DNA of 64,000 bases from Bacillota bacterium (GCA_050949225.1 JBMNFI010000002.1:197942-261941); one strand, 5' to 3'; positions 13,460 through 27,641 are shown, numbered from the stretch's first letter. The notes: generated by a model not told the origin, from the letters alone. Program-made: numbers and translations.

Positions 13460-14117
13460 TAATCTGGAGCGTTTGCCGATTTCTGCGATTAAGCAATATG
13501 CCTATTGCCGGCGTCGTTTTGGCCTAATGTTTATTGATAAAGAGTGGGCCGACAACTATAAAATTGTTGAGGGGGAGTTTTTACATGCCAAGGTTGACGA
13601 CCCCTTTTTCAGTGAAAAAAGAGGCGATATCTATGTCAGCAGAAGTGTTCCTGTTTATTCTGATAAAGATAATTTATACGGTATAGCTGATATTATCGAG
13701 TTTATTAAAGATGATGATGGTGTTGAAATCGGCACTAAAAAAGGGTTGTGGAGTATTAACCCCATAGAGTATAAAAATGGCAAGCCCGAAAAAAGTAATG
13801 CAGATGCTTTGCAATTGCTGGCTGTGGCCATTTGTTTGGAAAAGATGTTTAAGATTCATCTTGAACAAGGGGATATTTATTATGGTCGATTGCGGCGGCG
13901 CAAGCGAGTTGTTTTTGACGCTGAGCTGCGAGAAAGGCTGAAGGAAATATTAGCGGGGATTAAGCATATTTTGGACACGCAGCAAATACCGGAAAAAACG
14001 CCGGATCAAAATTGCAGCTTATGTTCTTTAGTCAATATTTGTTTGCCGGAAATTTTTCACAAAAAACAAATTACACGTGATCGAATCAACAATTTGTTGG
14101 TAAGAGGTGGGAGATGA
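13446..14117 (+). CDS. cas4: CRISPR-associated exonuclease Cas4 (RecB-like nuclease with C-terminal Fe-S cysteines)
   Basis: Motif YAYCRRRFGLMFIDKEWADN, a RecB nuclease core (DIIEF..., QLLAVAICLE) and a C-terminal CSLCSLVNIC cysteine cluster. Confidence 0.9.
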   Translation: MKKCDNLERLPISAIKQYAYCRRRFGLMFIDKEWADNYKIVEGEFLHAKVDDPFFSEKRGDIYVSRSVPVYSDKDNLYGIADIIEFIKDDDGVEIGTKKGLWSINPIEYKNGKPEKSNADALQLLAVAICLEKMFKIHLEQGDIYYGRLRRRKRVVFDAELRERLKEILAGIKHILDTQQIPEKTPDQNCSLCSLVNICLPEIFHKKQITRDRINNLLVRGGR

Positions 14118-15145
14118 AAAAACTTTTAAACACACTCTATGTGACAACTCCATTATCATATTTATCACTTGAAAATGAGAACATTGTAATTTTGCTGGAG
14201 GAAAAGGAAAAATTTCGTATACCTTTTGCTAATGTAGAAGGCATAGTTTGTTTTGGTTATATGGGTGCAAGTCCTGCACTGATGGGCAAATGTGCTGAAA
14301 ACAATATCTCTTTAAGTTTTTTGAGTCCCAGTGGGAAATTTTTAGCTCGAGTAACCGGTAAAACTAAAGGGAGTGTGCTTTTACGAAAAAAACAATATCA
14401 GTTTGCAGAGGACCGTCAAGCATCTTTGTTTTTGGCACAGAATATAGTCGCTGCCAAGCTTTTTAATTCCCGTAATACGATTGAACGCTCTATCAGGGAT
14501 AATGCAGATGCCGTGAAGATATCTAAGTTAATAGATGTTTCAAAATTATTAAAGGGTAATCTCCAAAAAGCTTACGATTTCCATGATTTAGATGAATTGC
14601 GTGGTTTTGAAGGTGCTTATGCCAAGGCTTATTTTAGTGTTTTTGATGAGATGATTCTGCAACAGAAAAAGCATTTTTATTTTACTGAACGCAATAAAAG
14701 ACCCCCATTGGATAATGTCAATTGTATGTTGTCATATCTTTATATAATCCTTGCCTTAGAGATCACAGCAGCTTTAGAGACTGTAGGATTAGACCCATAT
14801 GTGGGATTTATGCATCAGATTAGGCCGGGGCGTGCTTCTTTGGCACTGGATTTGTTGGAAGAATTACGTTCCTATTTAGTGGACAGGCATATTTTAACGT
14901 TGATTAATTTAAAGCAGATGACTAATAAGGATTTTCATAAAAAGGAAGGTGGTGGGATTTTGTTGACCGATGAGAGGCGGAGAAAATTATTAGATTCTTG
15001 GCAGAAGCAAAAGAAAGAAAAGATCCGTCATCCCATTATCAATGAAAAAATTGAAATTGGCTTAATTCCTTATGTGCAGGCGCAATTAATGGCTAGATTT
15101 TTGCGCGGGGATGTTGAGGAGTATCCGCCATTTTTGTGTAGGTGA
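14114..15145 (+). CDS. cas1: CRISPR-associated endonuclease Cas1
   Basis: 343 aa, ATGA overlap with cas4, Cas1-typical blocks (LYVTTP...LENENIVI, GFMHQIRPGRASLALDLLEELR). Confidence 0.93.
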   Translation: MKKLLNTLYVTTPLSYLSLENENIVILLEEKEKFRIPFANVEGIVCFGYMGASPALMGKCAENNISLSFLSPSGKFLARVTGKTKGSVLLRKKQYQFAEDRQASLFLAQNIVAAKLFNSRNTIERSIRDNADAVKISKLIDVSKLLKGNLQKAYDFHDLDELRGFEGAYAKAYFSVFDEMILQQKKHFYFTERNKRPPLDNVNCMLSYLYIILALEITAALETVGLDPYVGFMHQIRPGRASLALDLLEELRSYLVDRHILTLINLKQMTNKDFHKKEGGGILLTDERRRKLLDSWQKQKKEKIRHPIINEKIEIGLIPYVQAQLMARFLRGDVEEYPPFLCR

Positions 15146-15149
15146 GAAT

Positions 15150-15440
15150 ATGTTTGTAGTGATTGCTTATGATGTCAATACGGAAACGCGAGAGGGACGA
15201 AAAAGACTGCGGTTAGTGAGCAAAGCTTGCCAAAATTATGGTCAGCGTGTCCAAAATTCTTTATTTGAGTGTTTGATTGACTATGGGACTTTTTTAATTT
15301 TAAAAAAAGAGTTGGAAAGTATTGTTGATGAGGATTTAGACAGCCTGAGATATTATTATTTGGGCAACAAATGGCAAAAGAGAGTGGAGCATTTTGGTGC
15401 CAAAGGTGGCTATGATCCTGAGGGAACAATTATTATATAG
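15150..15440 (+). CDS. cas2: CRISPR-associated endoribonuclease Cas2
   Basis: Starts MFVVIAYDVNTETREGRKRLRLVSKACQNYGQRVQNSLFEC. The track ORF begins at an upstream alternative start, but the conserved Cas2 N-terminus starts at ATG 15150. Confidence 0.9.
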   Translation: MFVVIAYDVNTETREGRKRLRLVSKACQNYGQRVQNSLFECLIDYGTFLILKKELESIVDEDLDSLRYYYLGNKWQKRVEHFGAKGGYDPEGTIII

Positions 15441-15584
15441 GTTTGCGAACCATAAGTGACCATTTTTGGTTATTTTGTTGATACGGCTGTTTTTAGTGGC
15501 CTTTTGTTTTAAAGAGTTGTTATTGTTTTGTCCGCCCCATGCGGTAGATGTGATGAATAATGCCTGTCCAGGGCATTTTCTAGA

Positions 15585-16086
15585 GTCGCACCCCGCAGGG
15601 GGTGCGTGGATTGAAATACAAGTATTACCAGAGCTGGAAAGAAAGATTTTGTCGCACCCCGCAGGGGGTGCGTGGATTGAAATCGGAAACGGCAAAGCGT
15701 ATGACCCCGCCAAAAGTGTCGCACCCCGCAGGGGGTGCGTGGATTGAAATTCTTAACTGTCTGCACAACATTAAATAATCCAACCGTCGCACCCCGCAGG
15801 GGGTGCGTGGATTGAAATTTTCTGATTTTGTGAAACTTTTCGGGATTGGTCGGTCGCACCCCGCAGGGGGTGCGTGGATTGAAATCCGTTATACCATTTA
15901 TTACGTAAGTTTTAACAACGTCGCACCCCGCAGGGGGTGCGTGGATTGAAATCATCGATTAGCTCTGTGACGATAAAATTAAGCTGTCGCACCCCGCAGG
16001 GGGTGCGTGGATTGAAATAAAATTGTTGATAAGCTCTCCGTCATAGAGGGTTGGTCGCACCCCGCAGGGGGTGCGTGGATTGAAAT
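15585..16086 (+). CRISPR. CRISPR array, 8 direct repeats of 33 bp (GTCGCACCCCGCAGGGGGTGCGTGGATTGAAAT) with 7 spacers of 33-35 bp; leader about 144 bp on the cas2 side
   Basis: Repeats begin at 15585, 15651, 15718, 15786, 15853, 15920, 15986 and 16054, all identical. The repeat is a typical type I-C repeat. The last repeat is not degenerate. Confidence 0.97.
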
Positions 16087-16996
16087 TTAGTGCAACAGCA
16101 GCAATCATCTCTACCTCGCCTGTTTTGACTGCGCCGGCTGTACTGAAATCAGGGAGCCAAGTCTGAACAGGGGCAACGCCCGCCATGCTGACTGCATGGA
16201 ATCCATCAACCCCCATCCGTGCAAAATAGATAGAGCTTGTGCCGTCCACACCTGACGTACCGATGATATCATTGTTACTTCCGGGTTTTGCGCCAAGATC
16301 AATCAGGGGAATACCGTTATACATGGAAACGTTGTTGCCCCATTCATCACGTGTTTCCTGATATTTACCATGAACTTTGGCGAGATACTCAAGAGTGGAA
16401 ATCATGTCACCATTGCCCATAATTGCAGAAGGCTTCCCATCAAGCTTTCTTAAAGCTTTATTTAAGGCGAGAAGGAAAGCACCGCCATTTGTTTCAATGT
16501 TCGCCGCGGTGGAAAGGTCAATGATATTCCCGGCATTAAATTCGGTTGCAGATCCCAATAACGCGGAATCTAAGCCATCAAAGGCATTTGCATTGACTGC
16601 CGAATCACCATTGATCACAGTGTCGCAAAACAGAGCCGCTGCGGCTTTAATTTTTTGTTCCATTTGTAATGTTACTTCACTTATGATACCCCCCATGTCC
16701 GCGATAACGCGGTCAATCTGGAAAGAACCGCCGAAGACCTTTAAGTCGACAGTATAGCGCTGTTTACCAACTTCCTGCGGATTATACTCAGCGTTTACCG
16801 CACGAAAAGCCGCGGTGGGTTGTGTAACCAGGCGAGTATAACCATAAGTTAGCGTTGCGCCGCCACCGGTGGGGGAAACACAATCATCAAAAACCATGTT
16901 ATCAAGCAAAAAGGAGCTTTTGCGGAATTCGTCAATCACTCCCATTTGTAAATCATCCTGTACGTTTTTCTTAGCTTCTTGTAATGTTACTGGCAT
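15959..16996 (-). CDS. phage major capsid protein; only 16087..16996 is capsid-derived, and the 3' end of the ORF reads through CRISPR repeat 8 and spacers (gene truncated or fused by the array)
   Basis: About 300-aa Gly/Ala-rich capsid-like product directly downstream of a scaffold gene. The last 43 codons (..FNPRTPCGVRPT..ISIHAPPAGCD..) are translations of the CRISPR repeat. Confidence 0.6.
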   Translation of the reverse strand: MPVTLQEAKKNVQDDLQMGVIDEFRKSSFLLDNMVFDDCVSPTGGGATLTYGYTRLVTQPTAAFRAVNAEYNPQEVGKQRYTVDLKVFGGSFQIDRVIADMGGIISEVTLQMEQKIKAAAALFCDTVINGDSAVNANAFDGLDSALLGSATEFNAGNIIDLSTAANIETNGGAFLLALNKALRKLDGKPSAIMGNGDMISTLEYLAKVHGKYQETRDEWGNNVSMYNGIPLIDLGAKPGSNNDIIGTSGVDGTSSIYFARMGVDGFHAVSMAGVAPVQTWLPDFSTAGAVKTGEVEMIAAVALNFNPRTPCGVRPTLYDGELINNFISIHAPPAGCDSLILSSQS

Positions 16997-17022
16997 ATTA
17001 TTTCTTCCTTTCGTCTGTTAAA

Positions 17023-17631
17023 TTAATCAGAGCTATTACCGGGGAATAATTTCGCTTTTATTGATTCCTCCAGCCCCTCCGGCTTAGGCGGCTCTGTTCT
17101 TTGTGCCGGATCTTTTTCCTCTCCCGGCTTCATTCCTTTTGGGACTGCCGGCGTAGGATTATCGAATTTGAAACAAAAGTTCTTTTCCTCGTCTTTAGTT
17201 AACGCTGTGATTTGGTCGCCGAGACCGACAATCTCGCCTTCCTTAACTGTGGCAGTTTCTAAAAACTCTGCCAGATAGACCTTGACTACTTTAGGGTCTC
17301 GTGCACCGGCTTTCAGCAAAGCAGATTCTACAATGGCATTTTTTTGTACTGTTAGTAATTCAGCTGCCATGCGTTCAGCTTCAGCTTTGTTGTCTTCTTG
17401 CAGCTTCTTGATTTGCGCCTCCAGCTCTTTATTGTCCGTGTTGGACTTTTGGAGTTCTTTCAGCTGCTTATCACGCTCTGAGACAGTACCTTTGAGGGTG
17501 TCCCTCTCGGTAATCATCTCATCGAGTCGCGACTTCGGCACAAAGCCTTCCAGTGCTTTCTTGTGTTCTGCAACCACCTTGTCGGCTGTTGCATCGTCGA
17601 TGTTCAAACTGGTCAAAAACTCTTTTTTCAT
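17023..17631 (-). CDS. phage scaffolding protein
   Basis: 202 aa, acidic and coiled-coil rich (KELEAQIKKLQEDNKAEAERMAAELLTVQ). Position is between the head-morphogenesis and capsid genes. Confidence 0.65.
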   Translation of the reverse strand: MKKEFLTSLNIDDATADKVVAEHKKALEGFVPKSRLDEMITERDTLKGTVSERDKQLKELQKSNTDNKELEAQIKKLQEDNKAEAERMAAELLTVQKNAIVESALLKAGARDPKVVKVYLAEFLETATVKEGEIVGLGDQITALTKDEEKNFCFKFDNPTPAVPKGMKPGEEKDPAQRTEPPKPEGLEESIKAKLFPGNSSD

Positions 17632-17815
17632 CTCGATTCTTCCTTTCTTTCAAAACATTTTTTTCCCGGTTCAGTCCGGTATTATTGTCTTTTAGTTTTG
17701 CGCCTTAAAATACCAAAAAGGCGATTTTTTTTATAAAAAAAGAGCGCCTACGATAGTAGGTACTCTTAATGTTATATCTGGGTATGAAAAACCACCTCAA
17801 ACAATCAAGGTGGTT

Positions 17816-18043
17816 TTACGGCAACGCGTTAATTATGTCTTGATATTCAAAAGCCTTTTTTGTCATTTGTTGTTTTTCATCAAGGCAGCACCGCAACAAA
17901 TAATCAGATGCTTTTTCCTCTATATCAAGCAACTGTTTTTCGGAAAATTCATTATTAGCAGGACAATTAAAGCCTGCTTCTGCTAATAATTCTTGTTGTC
18001 TTTTACTAAAATCTACTTTCATTATCCTACTCTCCTTTTCCAT
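17816..18043 (-). CDS. small protein overlapping the 3' end of the MuF gene; candidate immunity protein for the MuF C-terminal domain
   Basis: 75-aa ORF overlapping the MuF stop by 17 nt. It is duplicated nearly identically at 25232..25459. Confidence 0.5.
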   Translation of the reverse strand: MEKESRIMKVDFSKRQQELLAEAGFNCPANNEFSEKQLLDIEEKASDYLLRCCLDEKQQMTKKAFEYQDIINALP

Positions 18044-19373
18044 ATTTTTTAATTCTACTTTTCCCGGTTTTCCATGTAGTAATCAGTGTTTTTGTTTCGG
18101 GGTTAACCGCTACTGTCGCCCTTTGCCCAATAAATTGAATAGAAGGCTTCCCTGAAGCATTAATACTAACCTCTGTTATGTGTAACGGGGTCTTTAAAGC
18201 CTCTATTGCGGCACTTACTTCAACAGCACGTTCCTCCCCTCGAGCTATCAAATGAGGGTTTATATGCTCTATAGTTAGTCCGTTCTGTGCTTCTACTCCT
18301 ATTATACCCTGCCAGTCGCTTTCTTTCAACACATAATTTTTATACCATTCTTGATAGGTCATATCGCCCTTAACATATTGTATCTCACCATCTGCACCTC
18401 TAGCTGCCCGCTCAAACTCTTTGCTGAACTCATCATCAAAGTGCGGACAAGTAGTGCCACGACAGCGTGTATGAAAGGGCGGCACAGTCACTCCGGGAGA
18501 ATAATCCGCCATCTTAACAACCTTGCCGTCCATCTCTTGACAAATGGTGCAAACGAGGTCGTCAAGCGTCTCGACAACCTCCACCGCCTCCACATCGAGC
18601 TCTTTATAAGCCTCCTTTTGGCCGGCAGCCACAAAGTACGTTGTTTCCGTATCTAAAAGGGCAGCGGCTCTGTGCTTTTTAACACCGAACTTTGCAGCAA
18701 AATCCTTAACACCAACATACGGCGTTTCACCAGTCATCAAGTTACGCATCAGCTGCGACTGCAAATCGCCAATAAGCGTCTGTTTATCGCGCCATATTCG
18801 ATCACTAAAATTCAGGCCATCAACCGCCCAAGGCGTTTTGATCAAGCGGTTAATCGCCGCCACATCAAGCGGCGAGATTGACCAGACTGCCCCAACACCT
18901 TTTTGAACATTAAAAGCCGTCCGATAGTATGTATCATCTAAAATCTTACGCAATACTTCATCTGTTAGGGCGTATTCCCTAGCATATAAAACCTCAACAG
19001 CCTGCTGCATCTCAATTTTGAGAGCCTCTAAGCGCGAGATATGAACACGAGCTGCAGCGTTTTCCAGCTGCTGAATCCATTTGCCATTGACTTCTGCCTC
19101 TTGTCCTCTGGCAATGTATTCTTCAAGCGTCCATTTAAATTCTTTTAATTCACCGGCAGAAAGTCTTTTATGCGCTTCAGCCAATGGAATTTTATTATTT
19201 TTAGCAAATTGCGTATACCAACGAGAGATTTTATCATCAACCATGTGCATCGCCCTTGTATACTCTTTATTTATCTCTTCCAGCGCAAGAGAAGCAGTTT
19301 GGTGGGCATCTCTGGCAACGTCCTCTGATCGTTTGGTCCAATAAGCCGCACTCCGCTTGAGTAACTCTGTCAT
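18027..19373 (-). CDS. phage head morphogenesis protein, SPP1 gp7 / Mu F family, with a C-terminal extension
   Basis: MuF-family motif ..CTICQEMDGKVV...PPFHTRCRGTTCP. Sits downstream of the portal gene. About 100 C-terminal residues extend beyond the MuF core. Confidence 0.8.
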   Translation of the reverse strand: MTELLKRSAAYWTKRSEDVARDAHQTASLALEEINKEYTRAMHMVDDKISRWYTQFAKNNKIPLAEAHKRLSAGELKEFKWTLEEYIARGQEAEVNGKWIQQLENAAARVHISRLEALKIEMQQAVEVLYAREYALTDEVLRKILDDTYYRTAFNVQKGVGAVWSISPLDVAAINRLIKTPWAVDGLNFSDRIWRDKQTLIGDLQSQLMRNLMTGETPYVGVKDFAAKFGVKKHRAAALLDTETTYFVAAGQKEAYKELDVEAVEVVETLDDLVCTICQEMDGKVVKMADYSPGVTVPPFHTRCRGTTCPHFDDEFSKEFERAARGADGEIQYVKGDMTYQEWYKNYVLKESDWQGIIGVEAQNGLTIEHINPHLIARGEERAVEVSAAIEALKTPLHITEVSINASGKPSIQFIGQRATVAVNPETKTLITTWKTGKSRIKKYGKGE

Positions 19374-19376
19374 CGG

Positions 19377-20885
19377 CTACTCACCTCTTTTGTCCGGCTC
19401 GTCTTCCTCTTTTGTGGAGCTCCAGTCAGTAGGGTAAGCGTCTTCCTCTCTAACTCTTTCAGCCTCAATGCGTTTCATCTCTTTTTCTACATCAGAAATC
19501 CACGGGTGATTACTGATTGCGGTTTCTTTCGATATTAAGGCAGTAGAATTGAGGCAGTTTGCGATAATTTCACTTTCATTGATCATAATGTCACGATTGA
19601 AAATGAAGTCGATCTTCTCGTTTTCAAAATCGCCCTTGCCTTTGGTAGCCAAATAGTTGTTAACAAACCACAATAGGCTCTCCATGGCTGCTTGGTATTC
19701 CGTTTCCATACCGTTTGCATCAAGATCAATGTCACTGTACATGCTCTGGATGTTCATCTGATTAGGGCTGCCGCCCATCATGCGATCATCTTTGGCATCA
19801 TAGCCCATGGCATTTTCGATAATAGCCTTTTTAAACATATCAACAATCGATTCATAGTTTTTAGCATTGACCTCGATGTGGATACTATCTAAACCACCTG
19901 ATTGACCATCAAAAGATTTAACCTTAACTGCACGATACTGCATCAAATTATGCCTAAACGTGCCCAGATCTTCGCCATCATAGTTCTTTAATACAAGAAT
20001 CGAGCTCTGGCCGTCTTCCTGCATAGCGTTTTGAAAATCCGACATCATCAAGTTTAACGAATCTTGTAAATTTTTAACTTTAACAATCAAAGGAATTTCT
20101 TTGGAGTTGTGCTTAAAAGGTATCAATGGCAAACGCTCCCAATGCACCCCTTGCTCTACCGTCCCCCTTCTGTCCTCAGCACTATTGTTAACGACTATAG
20201 AGGCATAGTGGCTAAAAGGGTTAAGGCTATCTGTGATAAGACGTTCTTCTTTATCGTCCCAATCATAATATTCAATACCTTTGAGCGTGTAAACTTCAAC
20301 TTTTTTCTTAATCTTTTCCTCAGTGCCCTCATACTCAATCACTTCATAAATACGAATGGCGTACTCAAGGTCTGTATGCTCTGCATCTTTCCAACTGGGG
20401 ATAATTTCCCAGGGCGAAAAACGCCTAAAAGCAAGCTCTGATTGTTCATCATAATAAACATACAACCAGGCTAAGCCGCAATTAAGCGAATCAGTGCCCA
20501 TACTCCGCAATAATTTGTGAAAACGCTTGTCAAACAGTTCAGATAAGGCCTCTTGATATTCCGCGCTTTCTGTATCAAGCGTTAAGACTTGGCCGACAAA
20601 ATAATTTGTTTTTTGATCAACCATTTTAGCATACTGGTTATGGACAGTACGATTATTGGGCAAGTTTTCTACCGGCTCCAACCTGCCACTTTTGCCAATG
20701 ACCGTACGTTTACGTTGTAAAATATCGTGCTCCCCACGATAATACTTTTCGCCGGTAAGCATAGTTTTGCGTGCTTTAGAGCTTAACCAATTCTTGATTT
20801 GCTGTTCAAGAATCTCTTTTTTGGTCAAGGCGGTTTTGGCATGCGCCTCTATTTTTCTATTAATAAGTTGCGTATCAGTTATCAT
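19377..20885 (-). CDS. phage portal protein (SPP1 gp6-like)
   Basis: 502 aa between TerL and the MuF protein, with typical portal size and composition. Acidic C-terminus. Confidence 0.8.
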   Translation of the reverse strand: MITDTQLINRKIEAHAKTALTKKEILEQQIKNWLSSKARKTMLTGEKYYRGEHDILQRKRTVIGKSGRLEPVENLPNNRTVHNQYAKMVDQKTNYFVGQVLTLDTESAEYQEALSELFDKRFHKLLRSMGTDSLNCGLAWLYVYYDEQSELAFRRFSPWEIIPSWKDAEHTDLEYAIRIYEVIEYEGTEEKIKKKVEVYTLKGIEYYDWDDKEERLITDSLNPFSHYASIVVNNSAEDRRGTVEQGVHWERLPLIPFKHNSKEIPLIVKVKNLQDSLNLMMSDFQNAMQEDGQSSILVLKNYDGEDLGTFRHNLMQYRAVKVKSFDGQSGGLDSIHIEVNAKNYESIVDMFKKAIIENAMGYDAKDDRMMGGSPNQMNIQSMYSDIDLDANGMETEYQAAMESLLWFVNNYLATKGKGDFENEKIDFIFNRDIMINESEIIANCLNSTALISKETAISNHPWISDVEKEMKRIEAERVREEDAYPTDWSSTKEEDEPDKRGE

Positions 20886-20900
20886 CTGATCACCTTTCTT

Positions 20901-22166
20901 TTAATCAAAGCTAAACAGTGACCCTTTGGCCAATTCTTCGAGGGCATATCTCATGGCGTCCATCAAATGGTTAAAATCATCTATTGGTCTGTTAAGGACA
21001 ACGCCCTCGCGGTTTGTATCCCAAATATAATTTGACAGCTCCATCACCGTGTTAGTGCAAGAGGGGTGCACGATAATTTTATAGCCCTGTACGTGTTGGA
21101 TGCCGTGCCTAATACTGTCAGGCCCTTTTCTTGCCGCCCTGATATGCGGAATGTCAGCATCCCTTAGCTCTTGTATTGACTTTGGCTCTGCGCTATCCGC
21201 GATAATTGTTTCTTTACGATAACCTTTGTTGATGATGTGCTCAGCAATCATTTGGTTTGTCAGTTGTTTTTTATAAAATTCATCGAAAACATAGATCTCT
21301 TTGGCTTTTTGATCAACCGCCATTGCAATAAATGCTGATGGGTCGTTGGTATAACCAAAGTCTAAGCCAAAAGTCGTCTTGAGGTACGGTCGCTTTTTGA
21401 GTAATTCTGCTATTTTAAAGTCGTGCTCTTCCCAATTGTCATAAATCAGACCTTCGGCAATGCCCCAATTCCCCAACCCCTCAACCTGATAGCGGCGCGG
21501 TTGGTTGATGCGCATTTCCTCAAAAACCTGTTTATCCGCCTCATCTAAAAATTCATTACACATAAAATTTGTTGTATCGGCAAAAATTAAGTCACTTTCT
21601 GTATCAAAAAACCGTTTTTTAATCCAATGCTTGTCCGACCATGGATTAAACGTCAGTGTCAGCTGTTTAAAATAGCCTTCCGGCACAATGCCGCGCAGCG
21701 AAGTGTCCAGTTTGTTAAAATCAGCCTCATTCATAATCTGGAAGGCCTCTTCAATCCAAAACCAACACAATACGCCTTTATCAACGGTGATTGAGGTGAT
21801 GCTCTGCGGGTCATCCATGCCGCGAAACAGAATCTTTTGACCTGTTGGCTTGTATCTAATTTCCATAGGGTTTTTACTAAACCCCCAAGCATCCGCCGCC
21901 CCTAAACGATTAATCGCCCAAATTAACTGGGCGAAGGTTGAGTCTTTATGGGTGTTGAAATACCGTCGGACAACCAGCAGATTTGCTTCTGGGTATTTCA
22001 TCAGGTTATATATACACCAAAGGGCAGTCGTACAGCTTTTCTTACTGCCACGACCACCTTTTAGTACTCTATATCGTACTTTTGAGTGCCAAAACGAGGA
22101 ATACCCTCTGCCGATAACGCTCGGTAAGTGAATCCTAGGACGCTCAATCCTCGAGTTCATTTTCAC
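20901..22166 (-). CDS. terL: phage terminase large subunit (PBSX/terminase_6-like)
   Basis: N-terminal Walker A (KGGRGSKKS), ATPase followed by a nuclease domain with conserved acidic residues. 23-nt overlap with terS. Confidence 0.88.
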   Translation of the reverse strand: MKMNSRIERPRIHLPSVIGRGYSSFWHSKVRYRVLKGGRGSKKSCTTALWCIYNLMKYPEANLLVVRRYFNTHKDSTFAQLIWAINRLGAADAWGFSKNPMEIRYKPTGQKILFRGMDDPQSITSITVDKGVLCWFWIEEAFQIMNEADFNKLDTSLRGIVPEGYFKQLTLTFNPWSDKHWIKKRFFDTESDLIFADTTNFMCNEFLDEADKQVFEEMRINQPRRYQVEGLGNWGIAEGLIYDNWEEHDFKIAELLKKRPYLKTTFGLDFGYTNDPSAFIAMAVDQKAKEIYVFDEFYKKQLTNQMIAEHIINKGYRKETIIADSAEPKSIQELRDADIPHIRAARKGPDSIRHGIQHVQGYKIIVHPSCTNTVMELSNYIWDTNREGVVLNRPIDDFNHLMDAMRYALEELAKGSLFSFD

Positions 22167-22638
22167 CTTCGAAAACAGGCATTGTAATATTTATATTAGA
22201 CGTTGTAGCCCACATATCGTGGTATTTGCCGATCAATTCAAGCGCTTTATTGGCATCGGCAGTCTTGTTTGGCACTTCAACAACTTCGGCAGTCTGCCTT
22301 TCAGTAGTAATCTTTCGTCCTTTGCTGTTATAATCGCTGTCTTTGTGGGTCAATGTAACAACGACACTCTCCATATCTTTACGACGGCCTATGTTCGTCA
22401 GGCGCATCAAAATCTCTGATACGCCGGCAACACATTCGTCCTCTACTTTGGACATTAATTCATTTTTATAATCAATGATATGCGGCATTTGCAACAAATT
22501 GCAAGTCGTGACAGCAAGAGATCGAGGCTTACCTTTATAACCTGCATCTCTTGCGGCTTTTTCCCTATCCAAACCGTTAGCCACATAGTTTTGAACAAAC
22601 AGCTTTTGTTGATCAGTTATTTGTTTCTTTTTAATCAC
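22144..22638 (-). CDS. terS: phage terminase small subunit (HTH DNA-binding)
   Basis: 164 aa. N-terminal HTH region (QQKLFVQNYVANGLDREKAARDAGYKG) is typical of TerS. Immediately upstream of terL. Confidence 0.7.
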   Translation of the reverse strand: MIKKKQITDQQKLFVQNYVANGLDREKAARDAGYKGKPRSLAVTTCNLLQMPHIIDYKNELMSKVEDECVAGVSEILMRLTNIGRRKDMESVVVTLTHKDSDYNSKGRKITTERQTAEVVEVPNKTADANKALELIGKYHDMWATTSNINITMPVFEGENELED

Positions 22639-22655
22639 TTAAAATCACTTCCTTT

Positions 22656-23225
22656 TTACGCCGTTCTGCGCCACATGTAACATGTGATATATGGCGGTAA
22701 ATTGCCGCTGTTTCCTGAACCGGAGTAGCCCGTGTTGCCTGTTACTGGGTGGTCGTGTTTGGCATCAATTGCTATTCTGTCGGCATTACGTGCTGCTGTT
22801 TTTATTTCCACATTGGAATTCAAACTGATTCCGCCCTGCACATCATACGACAGTATCCCCGACGAATGGACAGGAAAACCTTGTGATCCACCTGTTAAGG
22901 TCCTGATATCGATCGTACCTGATAAGGCTTTTTCTGATGTTGTCAATGTTCCGTTATCATGTCTGTGGCTGTCTAGATACTTACTACCGCCTGTCTTTTG
23001 TGGGGTATTAAACTCTGCTTGTGTCGTATCCACCCCCACAGGCACTCTACCCGTTCCCCATGCGACCCATGTTCCACCCAATAGACTGCCTGGATTGGTT
23101 GCATTTACAGACATATATATTGCTCCTACGGGGTATGCTTTGTCTATATTAAAAGACTTACCATCGACATAGGCTTTGATTTTTTGCCAAAGATACAGTA
23201 ATCCATTATTGTCTAAAATTTTCAT
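22656..23225 (-). CDS. phage tail-fibre / receptor-binding-like protein (paralogue of 23239..23817)
   Basis: Start ATG 23225 preceded by AGGCGGTGG. Its N-terminus MKILDNNGLLYLWQKIKAYVD is shared with the upstream paralogue while the C-terminus is divergent and Gly/Thr/Ser-rich. Confidence 0.5.
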   Translation of the reverse strand: MKILDNNGLLYLWQKIKAYVDGKSFNIDKAYPVGAIYMSVNATNPGSLLGGTWVAWGTGRVPVGVDTTQAEFNTPQKTGGSKYLDSHRHDNGTLTTSEKALSGTIDIRTLTGGSQGFPVHSSGILSYDVQGGISLNSNVEIKTAARNADRIAIDAKHDHPVTGNTGYSGSGNSGNLPPYITCYMWRRTA

Positions 23226-23238
23226 TTTATGCCACCGC

Positions 23239-23817
23239 CTAACTGGCCATGATGGTATCGATTTCAGCATTTGTAATTGCCGCCAAATCATTAAACGTGA
23301 CATAGTCTGTCAAATCAACATCCGTTGAACCGATTTTCTCGTACGCTGATAAATCTGTCAGCCAAATATATTCATCGTAGCTGCCTCCGGAATTAGCCAC
23401 CAGATAAATTATGCCTTTCACTCCTTGTGTGGGCAAGGTCGCAACAATCTGAAAATCAATGCTTGTGATCCCCGACAAGGCGCTATTAATCGCTGTCTGC
23501 ACTTGGCTAGAGGTTTGATATCCCGCCCCATTTGTCAGCTGGTTGTTATTTGTTGGGATTTGATTAGCTGCCGCAATCCCAAGACCCGCTTTTGTTAAAG
23601 TGCCAGTGATTGTTGTGCCGTCAAGAGTTGGCTTGTTGACAATGGTTGTATAATCCGGCGCATTGATTAATCCAAGCAGTGCGTCGGTTAAGTCATTAGT
23701 TGACAGCCCCATATTTTCTACTTTATCAACTTTACTGTTAATTAAACTTTTGAGTTTTTGATTGTAGTATAATAGCCCGTTTTCATCCAAATATTTTTTA
23801 GGTGTCATGTTTTTCAC
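23239..23817 (-). CDS. phage tail-fibre / receptor-binding-like protein
   Basis: Conserved N-terminal KKYLDENGLLYYNQKLKSL followed by a Thr/Gly/Asn-rich variable region, as in siphovirus fibre proteins. Confidence 0.5.
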   Translation of the reverse strand: MKNMTPKKYLDENGLLYYNQKLKSLINSKVDKVENMGLSTNDLTDALLGLINAPDYTTIVNKPTLDGTTITGTLTKAGLGIAAANQIPTNNNQLTNGAGYQTSSQVQTAINSALSGITSIDFQIVATLPTQGVKGIIYLVANSGGSYDEYIWLTDLSAYEKIGSTDVDLTDYVTFNDLAAITNAEIDTIMAS

Positions 23818-23820
23818 TCC

Positions 23821-24075
23821 TTAAAATTGATTATTAATAATTTCTTCAATCTCCATATTTGTCAAACTGTCTTCCGCTAAATTCCGATTACCCTTCAAGG
23901 CAACCGCATTAATTGACGGTAGGTTTTCCAGCTCGTTATAGTCACTTGTCATAATGTATTCTGTGACTATATCGCTGTCCAAAACCAGCGAACTCTCACT
24001 CTGCCCGGACAGATCAATGACAAAATCCTCTTCTTCTGCTAATTTTATTTTTTCATCCATAACGCACCACCTCAT
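23821..24075 (-). CDS. hypothetical small acidic protein (phage-associated)
   Basis: 84-aa ORF, first gene pair of the leftward operon, 4-nt overlap with the upstream ORF. Confidence 0.4.
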   Translation of the reverse strand: MRWCVMDEKIKLAEEEDFVIDLSGQSESSLVLDSDIVTEYIMTSDYNELENLPSINAVALKGNRNLAEDSLTNMEIEEIINNQF

Positions 24076-24281
24076 TCATTCTCTGCAAACGTGATCTCCG
24101 GCAGAATTTCTAACTCCCCCAAAACCGTCTGCTTATAGGTTGGGTTAGCCCTATATAACTGGATATCAAAATAATATTTGCCAAAATGAAGGCTGTCCGT
24201 CTCTTCCGGCAAAATAACAAAGTGGTAACGACCTTCTTCGTCCTTTGTTATCTCATTTCGGCTGAGGCGTTTTTGAAACAA
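24072..24281 (-). CDS. hypothetical small protein (phage-associated)
   Basis: 69-aa ORF, translationally coupled with 23821..24075. Confidence 0.4.
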   Translation of the reverse strand: MFQKRLSRNEITKDEEGRYHFVILPEETDSLHFGKYYFDIQLYRANPTYKQTVLGELEILPEITFAENE

Positions 24282-24287
24282 AAAATC

Positions 24288-24316
24288 TTGACTACACGTG
24301 TTACACGTGTTATTCT
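24288..24316 (+). promoter_or_regulatory. putative hicAB promoter with a tandem ACACGTGTT operator-like direct repeat in the spacer
   Basis: TTGACT (-35), then ACACGTGTTACACGTGT in a 17-bp spacer, then TATTCT (-10), about 25 nt upstream of the hicA ATG. Confidence 0.35.
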
Positions 24317-24341
24317 ATGTATAGAGCGAAGGTGCTAACAA

Positions 24342-24506
24342 ATGAAATTCCGGGAACTCGAAAAGATCATAAAAGCGGATGGCTGGGAGCATATTAAGAC
24401 AGTAGGATCATATCACCAGTACAAGCACCCAGCAAAACCCGGAAAGGTTACGATACCGTACTCAAACAAAGATTTAAAATTAAACACCATAAATAGAAAG
24501 GACTGA
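24342..24506 (+). CDS. hicA: type II toxin HicA (mRNA interferase), 54 aa; not in the ORF track because it is under 60 aa
   Basis: Translation MKFRELEKIIKADGWEHIKTVGSYHQYKHPAKPGKVTIPYSNKDLKLNTINRKD matches the HicA consensus (ELxKLLxxDGW..xGSHHxxKHPxxPG.VTVP). Sits immediately upstream of hicB. Confidence 0.75.
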   Translation: MKFRELEKIIKADGWEHIKTVGSYHQYKHPAKPGKVTIPYSNKDLKLNTINRKD

Positions 24507-24511
24507 ACAAT

Positions 24512-24913
24512 ATGAAACTTATATATCCTGCCTGCCTTTATCCTTGTGAAGAGGGTGGTTACACTGTGGTCTTTCCTGATCTGCCCGGTTGTGTAACTGA
24601 AGGGGATACTTTAGAAGATGCCCTTGATATGGCCGCTGATGCTGCCTGTGGTTGGATACTAGGAGAGACTGAGGATGACAATCCTTTCCCCTCTGCCTCA
24701 GATATCAAAGGTATAATAGCAGATGAATACAAAGAAGGATTTACTTCCCTTATCCCTCTGGACATGGAGAAATACGCTAAAAACCATAGCAATAAGTCTG
24801 TTAATAAAACTTTAACTATACCGGCTTGGTTAAATACTGCTGCAGAAAAAGAGAATGTCAACTTCTCTCAGGTACTGCAAGAGGCACTAGCCAAAAAGCT
24901 TGACGCTATGTAA
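24512..24913 (+). CDS. hicB: type II antitoxin HicB
   Basis: N-terminus LIYPACLYPCEEGGYTVVFPDLPGCVTEGDTLEDALDMA is the HicB/UPF0150 RNase-H-like fold signature. C-terminal RHH-like DNA-binding tail. Confidence 0.85.
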   Translation: MKLIYPACLYPCEEGGYTVVFPDLPGCVTEGDTLEDALDMAADAACGWILGETEDDNPFPSASDIKGIIADEYKEGFTSLIPLDMEKYAKNHSNKSVNKTLTIPAWLNTAAEKENVNFSQVLQEALAKKLDAM

Positions 24914-24922
24914 AACAATATA

Positions 24923-25022
24923 GTCGCACCCCGCAGGGGGTGCGTGGATTGAAATAATTTGATCGCTTGGGTTCGTCGGCGATTGAGCTGTCGCACCCTG
25001 CAGGGGGTGCGTGGATTGAAAT
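24923..25022 (+). CRISPR. CRISPR mini-array: 2 repeats and 1 spacer (34 bp). The second repeat is degenerate (C to T at position 10), as expected for a trailer-end repeat
   Basis: Repeat at 24923..24955 is identical to the main-array repeat. The repeat at 24990..25022 has one mismatch. Same orientation as the main array 8.8 kb upstream. Confidence 0.9.
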
Positions 25023-25510
25023 TTTACAGTGGTGTTTTTTTCTACCGTTAGTAATTCAGCTGCCATGCGTTCAGCTTCTTGATTTGTGCCTCCGGCTCTA
25101 TTGTCTTTTGGTTTAACGTCTCAAAATACCAAAACGGCGATTTTTTATATAAAAAAGGAGCGCCTACGATTATAGGTACTCTTAATGTTATATCTGGGTA
25201 TGAAAAACCACCTCAAATAATCAAGGTGGTTTTACGGCAGCGCGTTAATTATGTATTTATATTCAAAAGCCTTTTTTGTCATTTGTTGTTTTTCATCAAG
25301 ACAGCACCGCAGCAAATAATCAGATGCTTTTTCCTCTATATCAAGCAACTGCTTTTCGGAAAACTCATTATTAGCAGGACAATTAAAGCCCGCTTCTGCT
25401 AATAATTCTTGCTGTCTTTTACTAAAATCTACTTTCATTATCCTACTCTCCTTTTCCATATTTTTTAATTCTACTTTTTCCGGTTTTCCATGTAGTAATT
25501 AGTGTTTTTA
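25023..25510. repeat. partial direct duplicate (with internal deletions) of 17345..18110: internal scaffold fragment, junction and small ORF
   Basis: Long near-identical stretches shared with 17352-17382, 17408-17428 and 17690-18110, for example CTCTTAATGTTATATCTGGGTATGAAAAACCACCTCAAA..AATCAAGGTGGTTTTACGGCA. Confidence 0.8.
25232..25459 (-). CDS. second copy of the 75-aa small protein (candidate immunity protein), now orphaned
   Basis: 73 of 75 residues identical to 17816..18043. The upstream MuF gene is absent except for its last few dozen nucleotides. Confidence 0.5.
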   Translation of the reverse strand: MEKESRIMKVDFSKRQQELLAEAGFNCPANNEFSEKQLLDIEEKASDYLLRCCLDEKQQMTKKAFEYKYIINALP

Positions 25511-25562
25511 TTATGAAAATCTATGAAAAAAACCACCCTGTTGTGGGGTGGCTTAATCGCTA

Positions 25563-25808
25563 TTAGTTTTCAAAATAGGGGTTTATATCTACTTGAGATC
25601 TAATTTCTACGCCATAATGCGCGGCATTTAAGACATTAACTTCTTTGCCATTAAGCAAATAGGATTGGATCTGAGAGCCGTCAACATCTTCCAAGTAATC
25701 ATTTTTTATTAACGCAGGTATATTTCTTTCGAGAGCAGCGCACTGCCTCTTGAAAATATCTTCGTCAAAAACATTACAAATCACATATTCATAATTGTAT
25801 TTATACAT
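25563..25808 (-). CDS. small paralogous protein A (about 80 aa), candidate orphan immunity protein
   Basis: Paralogue of 26348..26587 and 27399..27641 (shared ..C.VFD.DIF..QC.ALE.NIP.L...DY..DVD.SQIQ.Y.LN.K.V.VLN....GVE..S.VD..PYFEN). Followed by a hairpin and T-run terminator at about 25527-25553. Confidence 0.5.
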   Translation of the reverse strand: MYKYNYEYVICNVFDEDIFKRQCAALERNIPALIKNDYLEDVDGSQIQSYLLNGKEVNVLNAAHYGVEIRSQVDINPYFEN

Positions 25809-25882
25809 TTGCTAGCCCTCCTGTTTATACTTTCGATAATTTTCGTGGATGATCTATAAAGTGGTTTTAGCTAATATTCGTT

Positions 25883-26279
25883 TTAAATGGCTAAATAATT
25901 CAATGCAAAATGATATCTATCTAGACGTTTCAAATCTTTTTTTAGTCACTTCTGATAATCTAGAAAGATCAGAATTATGTCTAAGGTCTGCAATTTTCAC
26001 TTTTTTTGCTAAAGGATTATTCTTTACTCTCTTCAGGTATTCAGTATAACCTTCTCTTTTGCACTTTGTAATAATTGTTACAGCTTCTATAATTTCTTGA
26101 CAAAAGCCAGCTTCAATAAGTTGTTCTTTTGTGTAATCGCTGTCTTATAAAACATCATGCGAAAGGGCAACGATCTTTTCTTTTTCTGTGTAGACCATTG
26201 CAGCGACTGTTAAAGGGTGGTTGATATACTCGTTTCCTCCCTTGTCTTTTTGACCTTTATGTGCTTTTTGAGCAATCAT
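25883..26279 (-). pseudogene. decayed small HD-domain protein resembling a RelA/SpoT-type (p)ppGpp hydrolase (small alarmone hydrolase-like); in-frame TAA plus a +1 frameshift
   Basis: Minus-strand translation MIAQKAHKGQKDKGGNEYINHPLTVAAMVYTEKEKIVALSHDVL*DSDYTKEQLIEAGFCQEIIEAVTIITKCKREGYTEYLKRVKNNPLAKKVKIADLRHN.. matches the RSH hydrolase N-terminus (H..GQ.R.sGEPYi.HPl.VA..l....D...i.AALLHDvvEDT....eei...FG..Va.lV.gvTK...). The TAA at 26145-26147 replaces the conserved Glu, and the frame shifts at the A7 run 25937-25943. Confidence 0.5.
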
Positions 26280-26347
26280 CAAAGCCTTCGCCAACAAGTT
26301 TACGCGCCTCGCTTTCGGTATTAATCCATAAAATGGTTTAATCGCTA

Positions 26348-26587
26348 TTAGTTTTCAAAATATGGTAACAGATCTACTTCGGAATTTACTTCTACACCAA
26401 ATATGGGCGTATTTAAAACTCTGACCTTTTTATCATTGAGCCAGTATATTTGAATTTGAGAGCTATCTACATCAACAGCATAGTCGCCCTTTTTTAATTC
26501 TGGTATATTCTTTTCAAGAGCAGTACACTGTTCCTGAAAAATATCAGAATCAAATACCTGACAAATAAAATATTCATGTTTGAACAT
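26348..26587 (-). CDS. small paralogous protein B (79 aa), candidate immunity protein for the upstream 154-aa domain
   Basis: Paralogue of 25563..25808 and 27399..27641. Starts 3 nt after the stop of 26590..27054. Confidence 0.5.
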   Translation of the reverse strand: MFKHEYFICQVFDSDIFQEQCTALEKNIPELKKGDYAVDVDSSQIQIYWLNDKKVRVLNTPIFGVEVNSEVDLLPYFEN

Positions 26588-26589
26588 TG

Positions 26590-27054
26590 TTAGCCCTCCA
26601 ATCCAAGTAATTTATTGATTTCTTTGTTTGACCGTGTAGAACTGTCGATTAAAGCCCTATAAAGATCATCGTCTGATTTATACAGGCTCCTGTATTTATC
26701 AACGTAAAAACTAAATTCCCGCAGAGGTGCATCTCTCACCAATCTTTCCAGTTCTTTCATGTCAATCATCATGTCCCTTGCTTGCTGCTTAAAGGTGTTT
26801 CTCAGTTCATGCGCCTGCATAGCCTGATCTTTTAGAGATAGTGTGCCGTCTAACATTGACGGAATTTTCTTATTGTGGGCTATGTACCAAGATCTTACTT
26901 CATAATTACCCAACATTCGATCAAATTTCAGCGAATAGTCCAAAGTATCAAGTCTATTTTGCTTACCGGCTTTTAACGCTTTCCATTTGTCAATTTCATT
27001 ATACTTTAAATATTGAAAATCCACAAGATTATTTGTATGCTTAATCCTAATCAA
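26590..27054 (-). CDS. orphan copy of the C-terminal domain found on the MuF-domain protein 27638..28732 (candidate orphan toxin-CT module)
   Basis: 154 aa, homologous over its length to the last ~150 residues of 27638..28732 (for example QAMQAHELRNTFKQQARDMMIDMKE vs QARQAYSLRNQYKEEARNLMADMAE, and SSTRSNKEINKLLG vs TATKSNEKVNKEVG). Confidence 0.5.
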   Translation of the reverse strand: MIRIKHTNNLVDFQYLKYNEIDKWKALKAGKQNRLDTLDYSLKFDRMLGNYEVRSWYIAHNKKIPSMLDGTLSLKDQAMQAHELRNTFKQQARDMMIDMKELERLVRDAPLREFSFYVDKYRSLYKSDDDLYRALIDSSTRSNKEINKLLGLEG

Positions 27055-27129
27055 AAAGACGATGAATATTTGTTAATCTATGTATTATAGTTCACTATAA
27101 TGCACTTTTTGTGCCTGCTTTTTTGACTG

Positions 27130-27240
27130 TTATCCAGTATCAGCCTTCAAAACTTCAATGCCCTTACCATATTCCGCCATAATTTTGTCAATGATATCCT
27201 TGTCATCAATGCCCAAACTTTCTAAAAATTCACGTTTCAT
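27130..27240 (-). pseudogene. fragment of a phage scaffold gene (first ~36 codons only)
   Basis: Minus-strand ORF MKREFLESLGIDDKDIIDKIMAEYGKGIEVLKADTG* parallels the scaffold N-terminus MKKEFLTSLNIDDATADKVVAEHKKALEGF of 17023..17631. Same position relative to a MuF plus small-ORF pair. Confidence 0.4.
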
Positions 27241-27398
27241 TTGATGTTTCCTTTCCTTCCGCTACGCTTTTTATCGGGGTTGCGCCCCGTGCGGCTGCAT
27301 CTTTTACGCTGTGCCCAGCAATATTTTTATATAAAAAAGACACTATGAACAATGTCAAAGTGTCTTAATTCATATTTAGTTGTTGCTATCAGTTGGCT

Positions 27399-27641
27399 TT
27401 AGTGCTTAATAAGCAGGTCGTCAAGTGGGTACGTGGATTTTACATACACCGCATCTACCAATGTGTCCATATAGATATCGATTTTTTCATTGTTTGCCGT
27501 AATATAAACAGCAATCAAAGAGCCATCCACATCTTCAAGCAGATCTTTCTTGACAGTAAAAGCCTTCTCAATTACTTTACATTGTGCATCAAAAACAGTT
27601 TTATCCACTTCTTTTGCGATAGTATAATCGTATTTCATCAT
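27399..27641 (-). CDS. small paralogous protein C (80 aa), candidate immunity protein for the C-terminal domain of 27638..28732
   Basis: ATGA overlap with the upstream MuF-domain gene. Paralogue of 25563..25808 and 26348..26587. Confidence 0.5.
   Translation of the reverse strand: MMKYDYTIAKEVDKTVFDAQCKVIEKAFTVKKDLLEDVDGSLIAVYITANNEKIDIYMDTLVDAVYVKSTYPLDDLLIKH

Follow-up and report, generated by a model that had tools for sequence, protein, structure and literature searches.

A truncated phage head-module fragment in a spacer position of a type I-C CRISPR array

Results

An 8,836-bp piece of a phage genome, here called P2, lies between two complete repeats of a type I-C CRISPR array, where a spacer should be. 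P2 is a cut-off, non-autonomous phage fragment that is not self-mobile, and the structure is real and chromosomal. A second, older fragment, P1, directly follows the last repeat of the same array. The window analysed was the whole 64-kb stretch of DNA; the features discussed below (repeats R1 to R10 and spacers S1 to S9 numbered from the leader) are given in window coordinates.

7805-15440, plus strand: type I-C cas operon (cas3, cas5c, cas8c, cas7, cas4, cas1, cas2)
15441-15584, plus strand: leader of the array, between the cas2 stop codon and R1
15585-16086, plus strand: R1-R8 and S1-S7; all eight repeats perfect, spacers 33-35 nt
15959-16996, minus strand: chimeric capsid ORF; capsid residues 1-303 (16996 down to 16088), then R8, S7, and R7 read through
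16087-24922, minus strand: P2, a piece of a temperate myovirus-type phage genome in the R8/R9 slot
17023-17631, minus strand: scaffolding protein (Phage_scaffold, PF06810, E=6e-36)
17683-18093, no strand assigned: segment A, made up of an intergenic region and a 68/75-aa ORF; 94% identity to A' (25099-25509)
18027-19373, minus strand: MuF-like minor head protein (Phage_Mu_F, PF04233)
19377-20885, minus strand: SPP1 Gp6-like portal protein (SPP1_portal, PF05133, E=3e-88)
20901-22166, minus strand: TerL (PF04466 and PF17288, Terminase_3/3C)
22144-22638, minus strand: TerS (PF03592, Terminase_2)
22656-24281, minus strand: Gp10_C tail/baseplate-like protein, a 189-192-aa protein, and two small ORFs (79-84 aa and 69 aa)
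24342-24913, plus strand: hicA-hicB toxin-antitoxin pair
24923-25022, plus strand: R9 (24923-24955, perfect), S9 (34 nt), and R10 (24990-25022)
25023-28732, minus strand: P1, the decayed remnant of a related phage's head module, older than P2 and starting inside a scaffold gene directly after R10

The I-C repeat (GTCGCACCCCGCAGGGGGTGCGTGGATTGAAAT) occurs ten times in the 64-kb window, always within 15585-25022, where no chance copies would be expected. The ten repeats share one orientation and lie downstream of the cas3-5-8c-7-4-1-2 operon, which gave above-cut-off NCBIfam matches to Cas5c, Cas8c/Csd1, Cas7/Csd2, Cas4, Cas1c, and Cas2; cas4, cas1, and cas2 are intact. Nine repeats are unmutated and the terminal repeat, R10, carries a single C to T change at position 10. 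Upstream of R9, no sequence similar to the leader (15441-15584) was found. With identical co-oriented repeats, an adjoining cas operon, 33-35-nt spacers, one leader, and degeneracy confined to the distal repeat, R1-R10 constitute a single type I-C array.

P2 begins immediately after R8 (end 16086) and stops immediately before R9 (start 24923). This geometry had been described in the earlier note and is borne out, both repeats being full and identical with nothing between them and the insert; domain searches of the ORFs likewise agreed with the gene list given there. The hicAB pair has its own promoter-like site and a palindrome at 24288-24316, and the hicB stop codon is 9 nt before R9 with no terminator between. 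Domain searches detected no integrase/recombinase or replication gene in any ORF of 16087-28732. When the ends of P2 were compared, no inverted repeats, direct repeats, or similarity to the I-C repeat were found, and the first and last 34 nt are unrelated; hence no spacer was duplicated.

At its R8 end, P2 is cut within the capsid gene, after residue 303. The capsid lacks the conserved C-terminal 15 residues (KATKAAGVFRxLKIx), a tail that continues in every capsid homologue aligned over that end, and the exact P2 capsid was found in the protein collection only as repeat-fused versions. The read-through of this ORF past the R8 junction to 15959 had been missed in the earlier note.

The nearest relatives of P2 are ordinary contractile-tailed (myovirus-type) phages with 88-91% capsid identity and a complete capsid gene. 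They are full-length phages that have the same gene order, followed by connector, sheath, tube, and tape-measure genes. The search of phage genomes for copies of the repeat, which had been proposed as a check, came back empty: the I-C repeat was absent from the 2.9 million viral contigs of IMG/VR and from all fetched phage relatives with up to six mismatches allowed. Because the capsid gene is cut, integrase and replication genes are missing, and the nearest relatives are ordinary phages without the repeat, P2 is not a complete element.

Within P1 are A', repeated MuF-C-terminal/80-aa cassettes, and a Phage_min_cap2 gene that is truncated at its N-terminal end. The segment directly after R10 (25021-25512) matches 17325-17436 plus 17675-18096 at 90-94% identity, a duplication that went unremarked in the earlier note. 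A and A' are direct repeats 7,416 bp apart and share a 66-nt identical stretch. No I-C repeat is present at the right end of P1, and the host hcp gene begins at 28997.

Three exact repeat/phage borders are thus present: R8 with the capsid gene, the ninth nucleotide after hicB with R9, and R10 with the scaffold gene. No homology was found at any of the three repeat/phage junctions. Nor was a TTC PAM found there, the sequences being GCT at the left end (from relatives), CAC/ACT/CTA at the right end (for a 33-35-nt unit), and GAT in the P2 copy of the P1 junction; note that the parental breakpoint sequence was deduced, in place of the parent phage, from relatives only 88-91% identical. As P1 joins R10 at a different phage position (scaffold gene) than that at which P2 joins R8, there is no conserved phage-side attachment site. 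Judged from these sequences, the joins are illegitimate, made without homology, attachment site, or PAM, yet exactly on repeat borders.

The same order and the same eight spacers recur at 99.94-100% identity in metagenome assemblies, at least five in number (five JGI assemblies are named, and six contigs of 7.9-308 kb were reported), all of which derive from one clonal population and one project. An NCBI MAG contig of 646 kb carries an identical HicB. Among the matching contigs none joining S7-R-S9 (an empty array) was returned, and no empty-site or intermediate allele was seen in this one clonal population.

Discussion

We favour a reading in which P2 and P1 are phage DNA fragments captured at repeat borders, with P2 a dead-end temperate-phage piece lodged as a giant 'spacer' and the long DNA joined at Cas1-Cas2 staggered cuts. 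We hold it tentatively, as plausible rather than probable. The flanking repeats R8 and R9 look like a target-site duplication, and the capture was possibly made by Cas1-Cas2, or at breaks that Cas1-Cas2 made, the joining mechanism being one that we infer. On the most economical account, long phage DNA present during infection would have been joined at two staggered Cas1-Cas2 cuts at the repeat borders, either by direct integration or by repair of such an intermediate, and gap filling would then have duplicated the repeat. P1, the older fragment from a related phage, would have been joined likewise to what is now the terminal repeat; because no repeat is found at its right end, a later deletion there must be assumed. 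The array order of P1, S9, P2, and then S7 to S1 fits leader-proximal insertion, since the most decayed fragment, P1, is the oldest and the intact P2 is the younger. P2 would afterwards have persisted as a fossil. Its loss by R8/R9 recombination may be penalised by the hicAB addiction module, and hicAB transcription may read into R9-S9-R10.

Casposases produce kilobase inserts with target-site duplication, and casposon integration is an evolutionary relative of Cas1-Cas2 spacer integration. P2 resembles the product of the latter in being bounded by a whole-repeat duplication, as after staggered cuts at both repeat borders. A stronger version of our reading, that the I-C Cas1-Cas2(-Cas4) proteins themselves integrated kilobase phage DNA twice at repeat borders and duplicated the repeat each time in a casposase-like manner, is nevertheless distinctly unlikely. 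Size and PAM tell against both versions: the length normally measured off by Cas1-Cas2 is about 33-35 bp, and a TTC PAM would be expected from Cas4, whereas P2 is 8,836 bp long, against 33-35 nt for the spacers of this array, and has no PAM. We are aware of no earlier case in which a CRISPR Cas1-Cas2 carried out full-site integration of DNA of kilobase length. P2 is not itself a casposon: terminal inverted repeats at its ends and a cas1 gene inside it were looked for and neither was found.

The first alternative, which had been offered in the earlier note and which we consider unlikely, is Campbell-type recombination between a chromosomal repeat and a circle of phage-derived DNA with one I-C repeat already in it, leaving an insert that could excise again. 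The two perfect direct repeats that flank P2 fit this model, as do several contigs and lengths. One contig, L009, contains the junction expected of the circle, from the hicB end through a single repeat into the capsid gene, at 100% identity to the window; the circle-form (hicB-repeat-capsid) ORF would come close, at 319 aa, to the native capsid length of 317-320 aa; and a 7,415-nt closed-loop contig, L007, was obtained in one assembly. However, L009 belongs to what we take to be a 31-mer assembly (Logan pipeline), and since k=31 is shorter than the 33-nt repeat, every k-mer of its path is also in the integrated form and the contig is not diagnostic of a circle. The 319-aa form is in no JGI contig, and L007 closes via the 66-nt identical A/A' stretch, not via CRISPR repeats. 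Moreover, the circle would hold a repeat-fused truncated capsid gene and no replication or integration functions and so cannot be a natural phage or plasmid, and neither the phage relatives nor IMG/VR contain the repeat. A Campbell event only shifts the origin problem one step back, because the repeat-fused truncated capsid and missing functions of the donor circle would themselves be unexplained. What stands of the model is that R8 and R9 could in principle recombine and excise P2; a circular repeat-carrying element as the origin finds no support, given the lack of an integrase or replication gene, the truncated capsid, the repeat-free relatives, and the joining of P1 elsewhere. The model is therefore best read as describing a possible re-excision and not the origin of P2, and a repeat-bearing circle of the kind represented by L009 is a possible proximate donor.

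More improbable again is recombination between spacers and protospacers, in which former spacers identical to phage sequence at 16087-16120 and 24889-24922 (and, for P1, from 25023 onwards) recombined with an infecting phage. Such recombination was reported for staphylococcal phages, where it gave hybrid molecules of phage and CRISPR sequence (work of Varble et al. 2019, cited by 10.1101/2020.10.09.333658). By that account the mechanism automatically yields exact repeat/phage borders inside phage genes (10.1101/2020.10.09.333658), which is how the phage sequence of P2 and P1 begins, and the involvement of pac-type phages is a further point in common. The exact left border of P1 and its ragged right end in a truncated gene would also fit a single crossover followed by deletion. 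Hybrids of this kind, however, need a phage-identical spacer and hence a PAM-flanked protospacer, whereas TTC is at none of the three inferred protospacers and the unrelated ends of P2 leave no spacer duplication. The model would require one phage to have supplied two PAM-less spacers in the same orientation and the correct order, and none of the present spacers has a match in the window or in the phage loci fetched.

Phage-borne mini-arrays are known, and two arrays with the same repeat trivially 'flank' whatever is between them. R1-R8 could thus be the host array and R9-S9-R10 an independent (e.g., phage-borne) mini-array, with the 8.8 kb as prophage debris between, and phage debris does lie on either side of R9-S9-R10. 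We regard this as quite improbable: R8 is perfect and not degenerate, whereas R10 has a terminal-type mutation; what precedes R9 is not leader-like, the hicB stop codon being 9 nt upstream; the cut in the capsid gene falls precisely on the R8 border; and the repeat is in no relative.

Integrase-mediated prophage integration into CRISPR repeats has been documented in the type II-A arrays of S. pyogenes (10.1101/2020.10.09.333658). PhiAP1.1 is a complete, inducible phage that encodes an integrase and an anti-CRISPR and has an 8-bp attP core that recombines inside the repeat (10.1101/2020.10.09.333658). It resembles P2 in that phage DNA is inside the array with repeat sequence on both sides, the array is split with its distal spacers probably uncoupled from the leader promoter, and repeat-to-repeat events can delete or move spacers. 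In contrast, P2 is an 8.8-kb fragment of phages that lack the repeat, is cut in the capsid gene, and is bounded by two complete repeats of a I-C array; an integrase, a complete inducible genome, and an attP matching the repeat in a free phage were each sought and not found. That P2 arose by such an integration followed by two deletions (of the tail/lysis and the lysogeny/replication modules) is very improbable: no integrase remains, both deletions would need ends exactly at repeat borders, both flanking repeats are full and not parts of one repeat divided at a short core, the junction on the phage side is inside the capsid gene, and no such prophage was found in I-C loci in that survey (10.1101/2020.10.09.333658).

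A phage satellite is also a poor description of P2. The small gene set of terminase, portal, scaffold, and capsid without tail genes is like that of cf-PICIs, but P2 has no integrase, no regulatory, replication, or head-tail connector genes, and no att sites of its own as sought for PICI and cf-PICI elements, its capsid is truncated, and its nearest relatives are full-length phages. Finally, an assembly chimera, in which a free phage-like circle with a repeat was wrongly assembled into an uninterrupted array, was the competing explanation in the earlier note and is very improbable: the repeats are the sole link, L009 shows an alternative path, and one project is behind all the assemblies, but the contigs of the five JGI assemblies and the 646-kb MAG contig agree, no S7-R-S9 contig was returned, and if k>33 was used for these assemblies, as is usual at JGI, reads must span S7-R8-capsid.

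Phage DNA in CRISPR arrays was previously known only as complete phage using the repeat as attachment site. The present case is a non-autonomous gene module bounded by a full-repeat duplication, with a second such fragment elsewhere in this array. Were the joins the work of the adaptation integrase, they would connect spacer acquisition with casposon-type transposition in vivo and would let arrays take up and carry functional genes, in this case the packaging module and the toxin-antitoxin pair; it could also mean that CRISPR integrases now and then act in vivo like their transposase ancestors and write 'giant spacers' with whole gene modules into arrays. If recombination made the joins, arrays would be recurrent sinks for phage DNA, and insertions of this kind can silence the spacers distal to them and give rise to repeat-bounded cassettes able to excise.

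A further observation concerns the cas operon, in which cas3 appears frameshifted. Frame analysis placed the HD part (7805-8554) and the helicase part (8515-10065) in different frames, with cas3_HD and cas3_core matching two overlapping ORFs, a feature that had previously been overlooked.

A phage segment in one spacer position of the array

The 33-nt repeat GTCGCACCCCGCAGGGGGTGCGTGGATTGAAAT is present in ten copies in the window, all on the plus strand and with no other site (0 expected from shuffles), and the array spacers are 33-35 nt long. Between the end of the eighth repeat (R8, 16086) and the start of the ninth (R9, 24923), 8,836 bp fill a single spacer position. The coordinates thus bear out the one-slot geometry described in the earlier note, and domain and ORF content agreed with its gene list for this insert, called P2 here.

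Features of the array, its surroundings and P2
Upstream of the array: complete type I-C operon, cas3, cas5c, cas8c, cas7, cas4, cas1, cas2
Upstream of the array, beside the operon: leader, 144 nt
15585-16086, plus strand: R1-R8, copies of GTCGCACCCCGCAGGGGGTGCGTGGATTGAAAT
16087-24922 (P2), minus strand: capsid, scaffold (PF06810), small ORF, MuF (PF04233), portal (PF05133), TerL (PF04466/PF17288), TerS (PF03592), Gp10_C tail/baseplate-like protein, 189-192-aa protein, two small ORFs
Within P2, plus strand: hicA and hicB
24923-24955, plus strand: R9, copy of GTCGCACCCCGCAGGGGGTGCGTGGATTGAAAT
24990-25022, plus strand: R10, copy of GTCGCACCCCGCAGGGGGTGCGTGGATTGAAAT with a single C>T

The capsid ORF, which starts at 16996 on the minus strand, passes through R8 and the seventh spacer (S7) into R7, to 15959. 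All homologues aligned over this end, those of Streptomyces, Gordonia and other phages, of IMG/VR contigs and the closest database proteins (83-91% identity, 317-320 aa), share a C-terminus in which '...EMIAAVAL' is followed by a conserved 15-residue tail, KATKAAGVFRxLKIx. The window protein diverges from them exactly at residue 303, the repeat border, which places the left junction inside the capsid gene, 45 nt short of the natural stop. In a search of about 15 billion proteins the exact capsid was found in only two versions, both fused to the repeat, indicating that the intact parent phage is unsampled; 50,697 phage records held no near-identical insert DNA.

The nearest relatives belong to ordinary genomes of the myovirus type, in which TerS is followed by TerL, portal, MuF, small ORF, scaffold, capsid, connectors, sheath, tube and tape measure. 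No integrase, recombinase or replication domain was found in any ORF of 16087-28732, and the P2 ends have neither inverted nor direct repeats nor any resemblance to the CRISPR repeat. We conclude that P2 is a piece of a phage genome and not a self-contained element. HicB relatives were uninformative as a route to the phage's native right end, the best non-self match being 72% identical. Directly upstream of terS and in the same orientation lie the Gp10_C domain protein and a phrog_24103 protein (tail/baseplate-like, 22656-23817), an arrangement absent in those closest relatives whose contigs extend upstream of terS.

A second, older fragment after the last repeat

Immediately after R10, 25021-25512 matches 17325-17436 plus 17675-18096 at 90-94%. 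The match takes in the central part of the scaffold gene, from which 238 bp are deleted, then the intergenic region and the small ORF. Beyond this stretch the second fragment (P1, 25023-28732) is unrelated to P2 as DNA and still phage-like. It ends ahead of the host hcp gene, and no degenerate repeat was found at its right end with up to 13 mismatches allowed.

Features of P1, minus strand where a strand is given
25563-25808, 26348-26587 and 27399-27641, minus strand: three ORFs of about 80 aa, paralogous to one another, two of them 62% identical
27638-28732 (full) and 26590-27054 (orphan), minus strand: MuF-type C-terminal modules, 38% identity
26145-26297, minus strand: metal-dependent (HD) phosphohydrolase, truncated 50-aa fragment (phrog_990, E=7e-16)
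Within P1: Phage_min_cap2 gene without the first ~150 profile positions

Each of the ~80-aa paralogues lies downstream of a MuF-type C-terminal module, and by analogy this arrangement is reminiscent of polymorphic MuF toxin/immunity cassettes that include orphan modules. P1 is an older, decayed fragment of a related but distinct phage, joined at a repeat border through a different phage position than the younger, intact P2. One array has therefore undergone two events, with three exact repeat borders and no conserved phage-side site.

The structure recurs across assemblies

By exact-protein look-up the repeat-fused capsid ORF, Cas2, HicB and a downstream ORF were found on six contigs, those shown coming from five JGI metagenomes (3300060679, -680, -803, -823 and 3300061563; up to 308 kb), and on several Logan contigs; sequencing runs in which this population occurs include SRR31065934, SRR31066037, SRR31066034 and SRR31061296. 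The JGI contigs aligned to the window at 99.94-100% identity with the same eight spacers and the common order cas, R1-R8, insert, R9-S9-R10, second phage fragment, hcp; all assemblies represent one clonal population, so that this agreement is one of reproducibility and not a strain comparison. An identical HicB is on a 646-kb NCBI MAG contig, 'Bacillota bacterium'.

The earlier note had offered an assembly chimera nucleated on the repeats as the competing explanation. A random chimera is unlikely, given that contigs from five metagenomes agree. A systematic one is conceivable only if the assemblers worked at k of 33 or less, which is unusual for JGI and presumably did not apply to these samples. 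A degenerate pattern for all four joints, two for the integrated form (left and right) and one each for the empty site and the circle, had no match in the metagenome set, which evidently lacks these samples.

Two contigs contain alternative joints. The first, L009 (Logan SRR31066037_311580, 4,843 nt), consists of window 21409-24955 followed by 16054-17382, and its succession of hicB end, single repeat and capsid is exactly the joint predicted for a circle or tandem. The capsid ORF in this form would have 319 aa, almost exactly the native length, and its TAG stop overlaps the hicB 3' end (24906-24908); this form was absent from the JGI contigs. As Logan contigs are, we assume, assembled from 31-mers and the repeat has 33 nt, every k-mer of the L009 path is also in the integrated form, and the joint is non-diagnostic as proof of a circle. 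The contig terminates at another shared 32-mer (17351-17382).

The second, L007 (JGI 3300061563, Ga0591957_0019742, 7,415 nt), joins window 21744-25509 to 18094-21742. Apart from base 21743, which is missing, it is the whole 7,416-bp unit between the direct-repeat copies A (in P2) and A' (in P1), closed into a loop through a 66-nt stretch identical in A and A'. On it are the mini-array R9-S9-R10, hicAB and the part of P2 that runs from MuF to the small ORFs beside hicAB. L007 may be an assembly-graph loop, or else a true circle or tandem produced by A/A' recombination; its hybrid joint, within that 66-nt stretch, is in one assembly only, otherwise fragmented, and we keep it as a hint. Rare recombination products could account for both contigs, and assembly graphs explain them equally well.

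How the repeat/phage joins may have formed

The breakpoints share 1 nt (P2 left end) and 2 nt (P1), so homology does not explain the joins. If one repeat is cut in staggered fashion at its two borders and the gaps are then filled, foreign DNA with arbitrary ends comes to lie between two full repeat copies. P2 has this footprint, and such cutting and filling is Cas1-Cas2 chemistry. Leader-proximal insertion would give the order P1 (decayed), S9, P2 (intact), S7 to S1, which fits the order of age. Our tentative preference, possible rather than probable, is that long phage DNA was captured either by the adaptation integrase itself or at breaks that this enzyme had made. To our knowledge, such capture has no precedent.

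The Campbell event of the earlier note, in which a phage-like circle already bearing a repeat recombined with a chromosomal repeat, fares less well. It needs a circle in which the repeat is fused to a truncated capsid gene, which would be no viable phage or plasmid, and the origin of that circle would itself need explaining. Nor is the idea of phages as carriers of the repeat supported: no copy was found in the nearest phage relatives fetched, with up to 6 mismatches allowed, and IMG/VR had none either. A spacer-mediated crossover would yield exact repeat borders; however, it predicts a phage TTC PAM beside each junction, and none was found. The PAM position at the P2 left end is GCT in relatives. 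At the right end, the three bases before a unit of 33-35 nt that stops at 24922 would be CAC, ACT or CTA, and where P2 has its copy of the P1 junction, GAT comes before it. Moreover, P2 does not carry the same sequence at both of its ends. Site-specific integration of the type of PhiAP1.1, an S. pyogenes prophage, depends on an integrase, on an entire phage and on crossing over within the repeat, none of which applies here.

Comparison with known systems

Among known cases the nearest is the integration of prophages into the type II-A repeats of S. pyogenes; the study describing it found no such prophage in I-C loci, and its phage is complete and integrase-driven (10.1101/2020.10.09.333658). 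The location is the same, but P2 has no integrase, no complete genome and no attP in free relatives. Unlike a canonical spacer it fails in length and PAM, unlike a casposon it lacks inverted repeats and a casposase, and unlike a phage satellite it lacks integrase and replication functions. A literature search on long or 'giant' spacers and interrupted arrays returned nothing beyond the S. pyogenes study (10.1101/2020.10.09.333658). Phage DNA within CRISPR arrays is already known, and P2 departs from the S. pyogenes case in every defining feature tested. The P1/P2 geometry is real and recurs within one array; the mechanism is only inferred and the evidence comes from one population.

Among GTDB representative genomes and the metagenome contig set, the repeat was found in only three arrays, unrelated and ordinary, and a search for relatives of Cas1 among the GTDB representatives found none. 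S7 and S9 had no match in IMG/VR, and the eight spacers gave self matches only against the window and 45 fetched loci.

Possible consequences for expression and interference

Spacers S1-S7 should still be read from the leader, and a 'guide' starting after R8 would have no downstream repeat within reach. S9 lies 8.8 kb from the leader. The hicAB pair is directed toward R9, and hicB ends 9 nt before it with no terminator between (24913-24923). Given this orientation, the absent terminator and a promoter-like site of its own, S9 is possibly still transcribed, and judging from the sequence the distal mini-array may form a 3' extension of the hicAB mRNA. Within the promoter-like site upstream of hicAB (24288-24316), positions 24294-24310 form a perfect palindrome (ACACGTGT TA ACACGTGT...) that probably serves as operator for HicB. 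The pair could penalise loss of the insert through R8/R9 recombination.

The cas3 gene is in two ORFs, HD (7805-8554) and helicase (8515-10065), in different frames with a 40-nt overlap. The frame switch lies upstream of helicase motif I (LTVPTGGGKT), before which the helicase frame is open and Cas3-like; an A6 run is at about 8446-8451. From its reading frames cas3 looks frameshifted and possibly inactive, and interference may be disabled through this split whereas cas4-cas1-cas2 are intact. The cas3 gene calls (249 + 516 aa) are identical across all assemblies.
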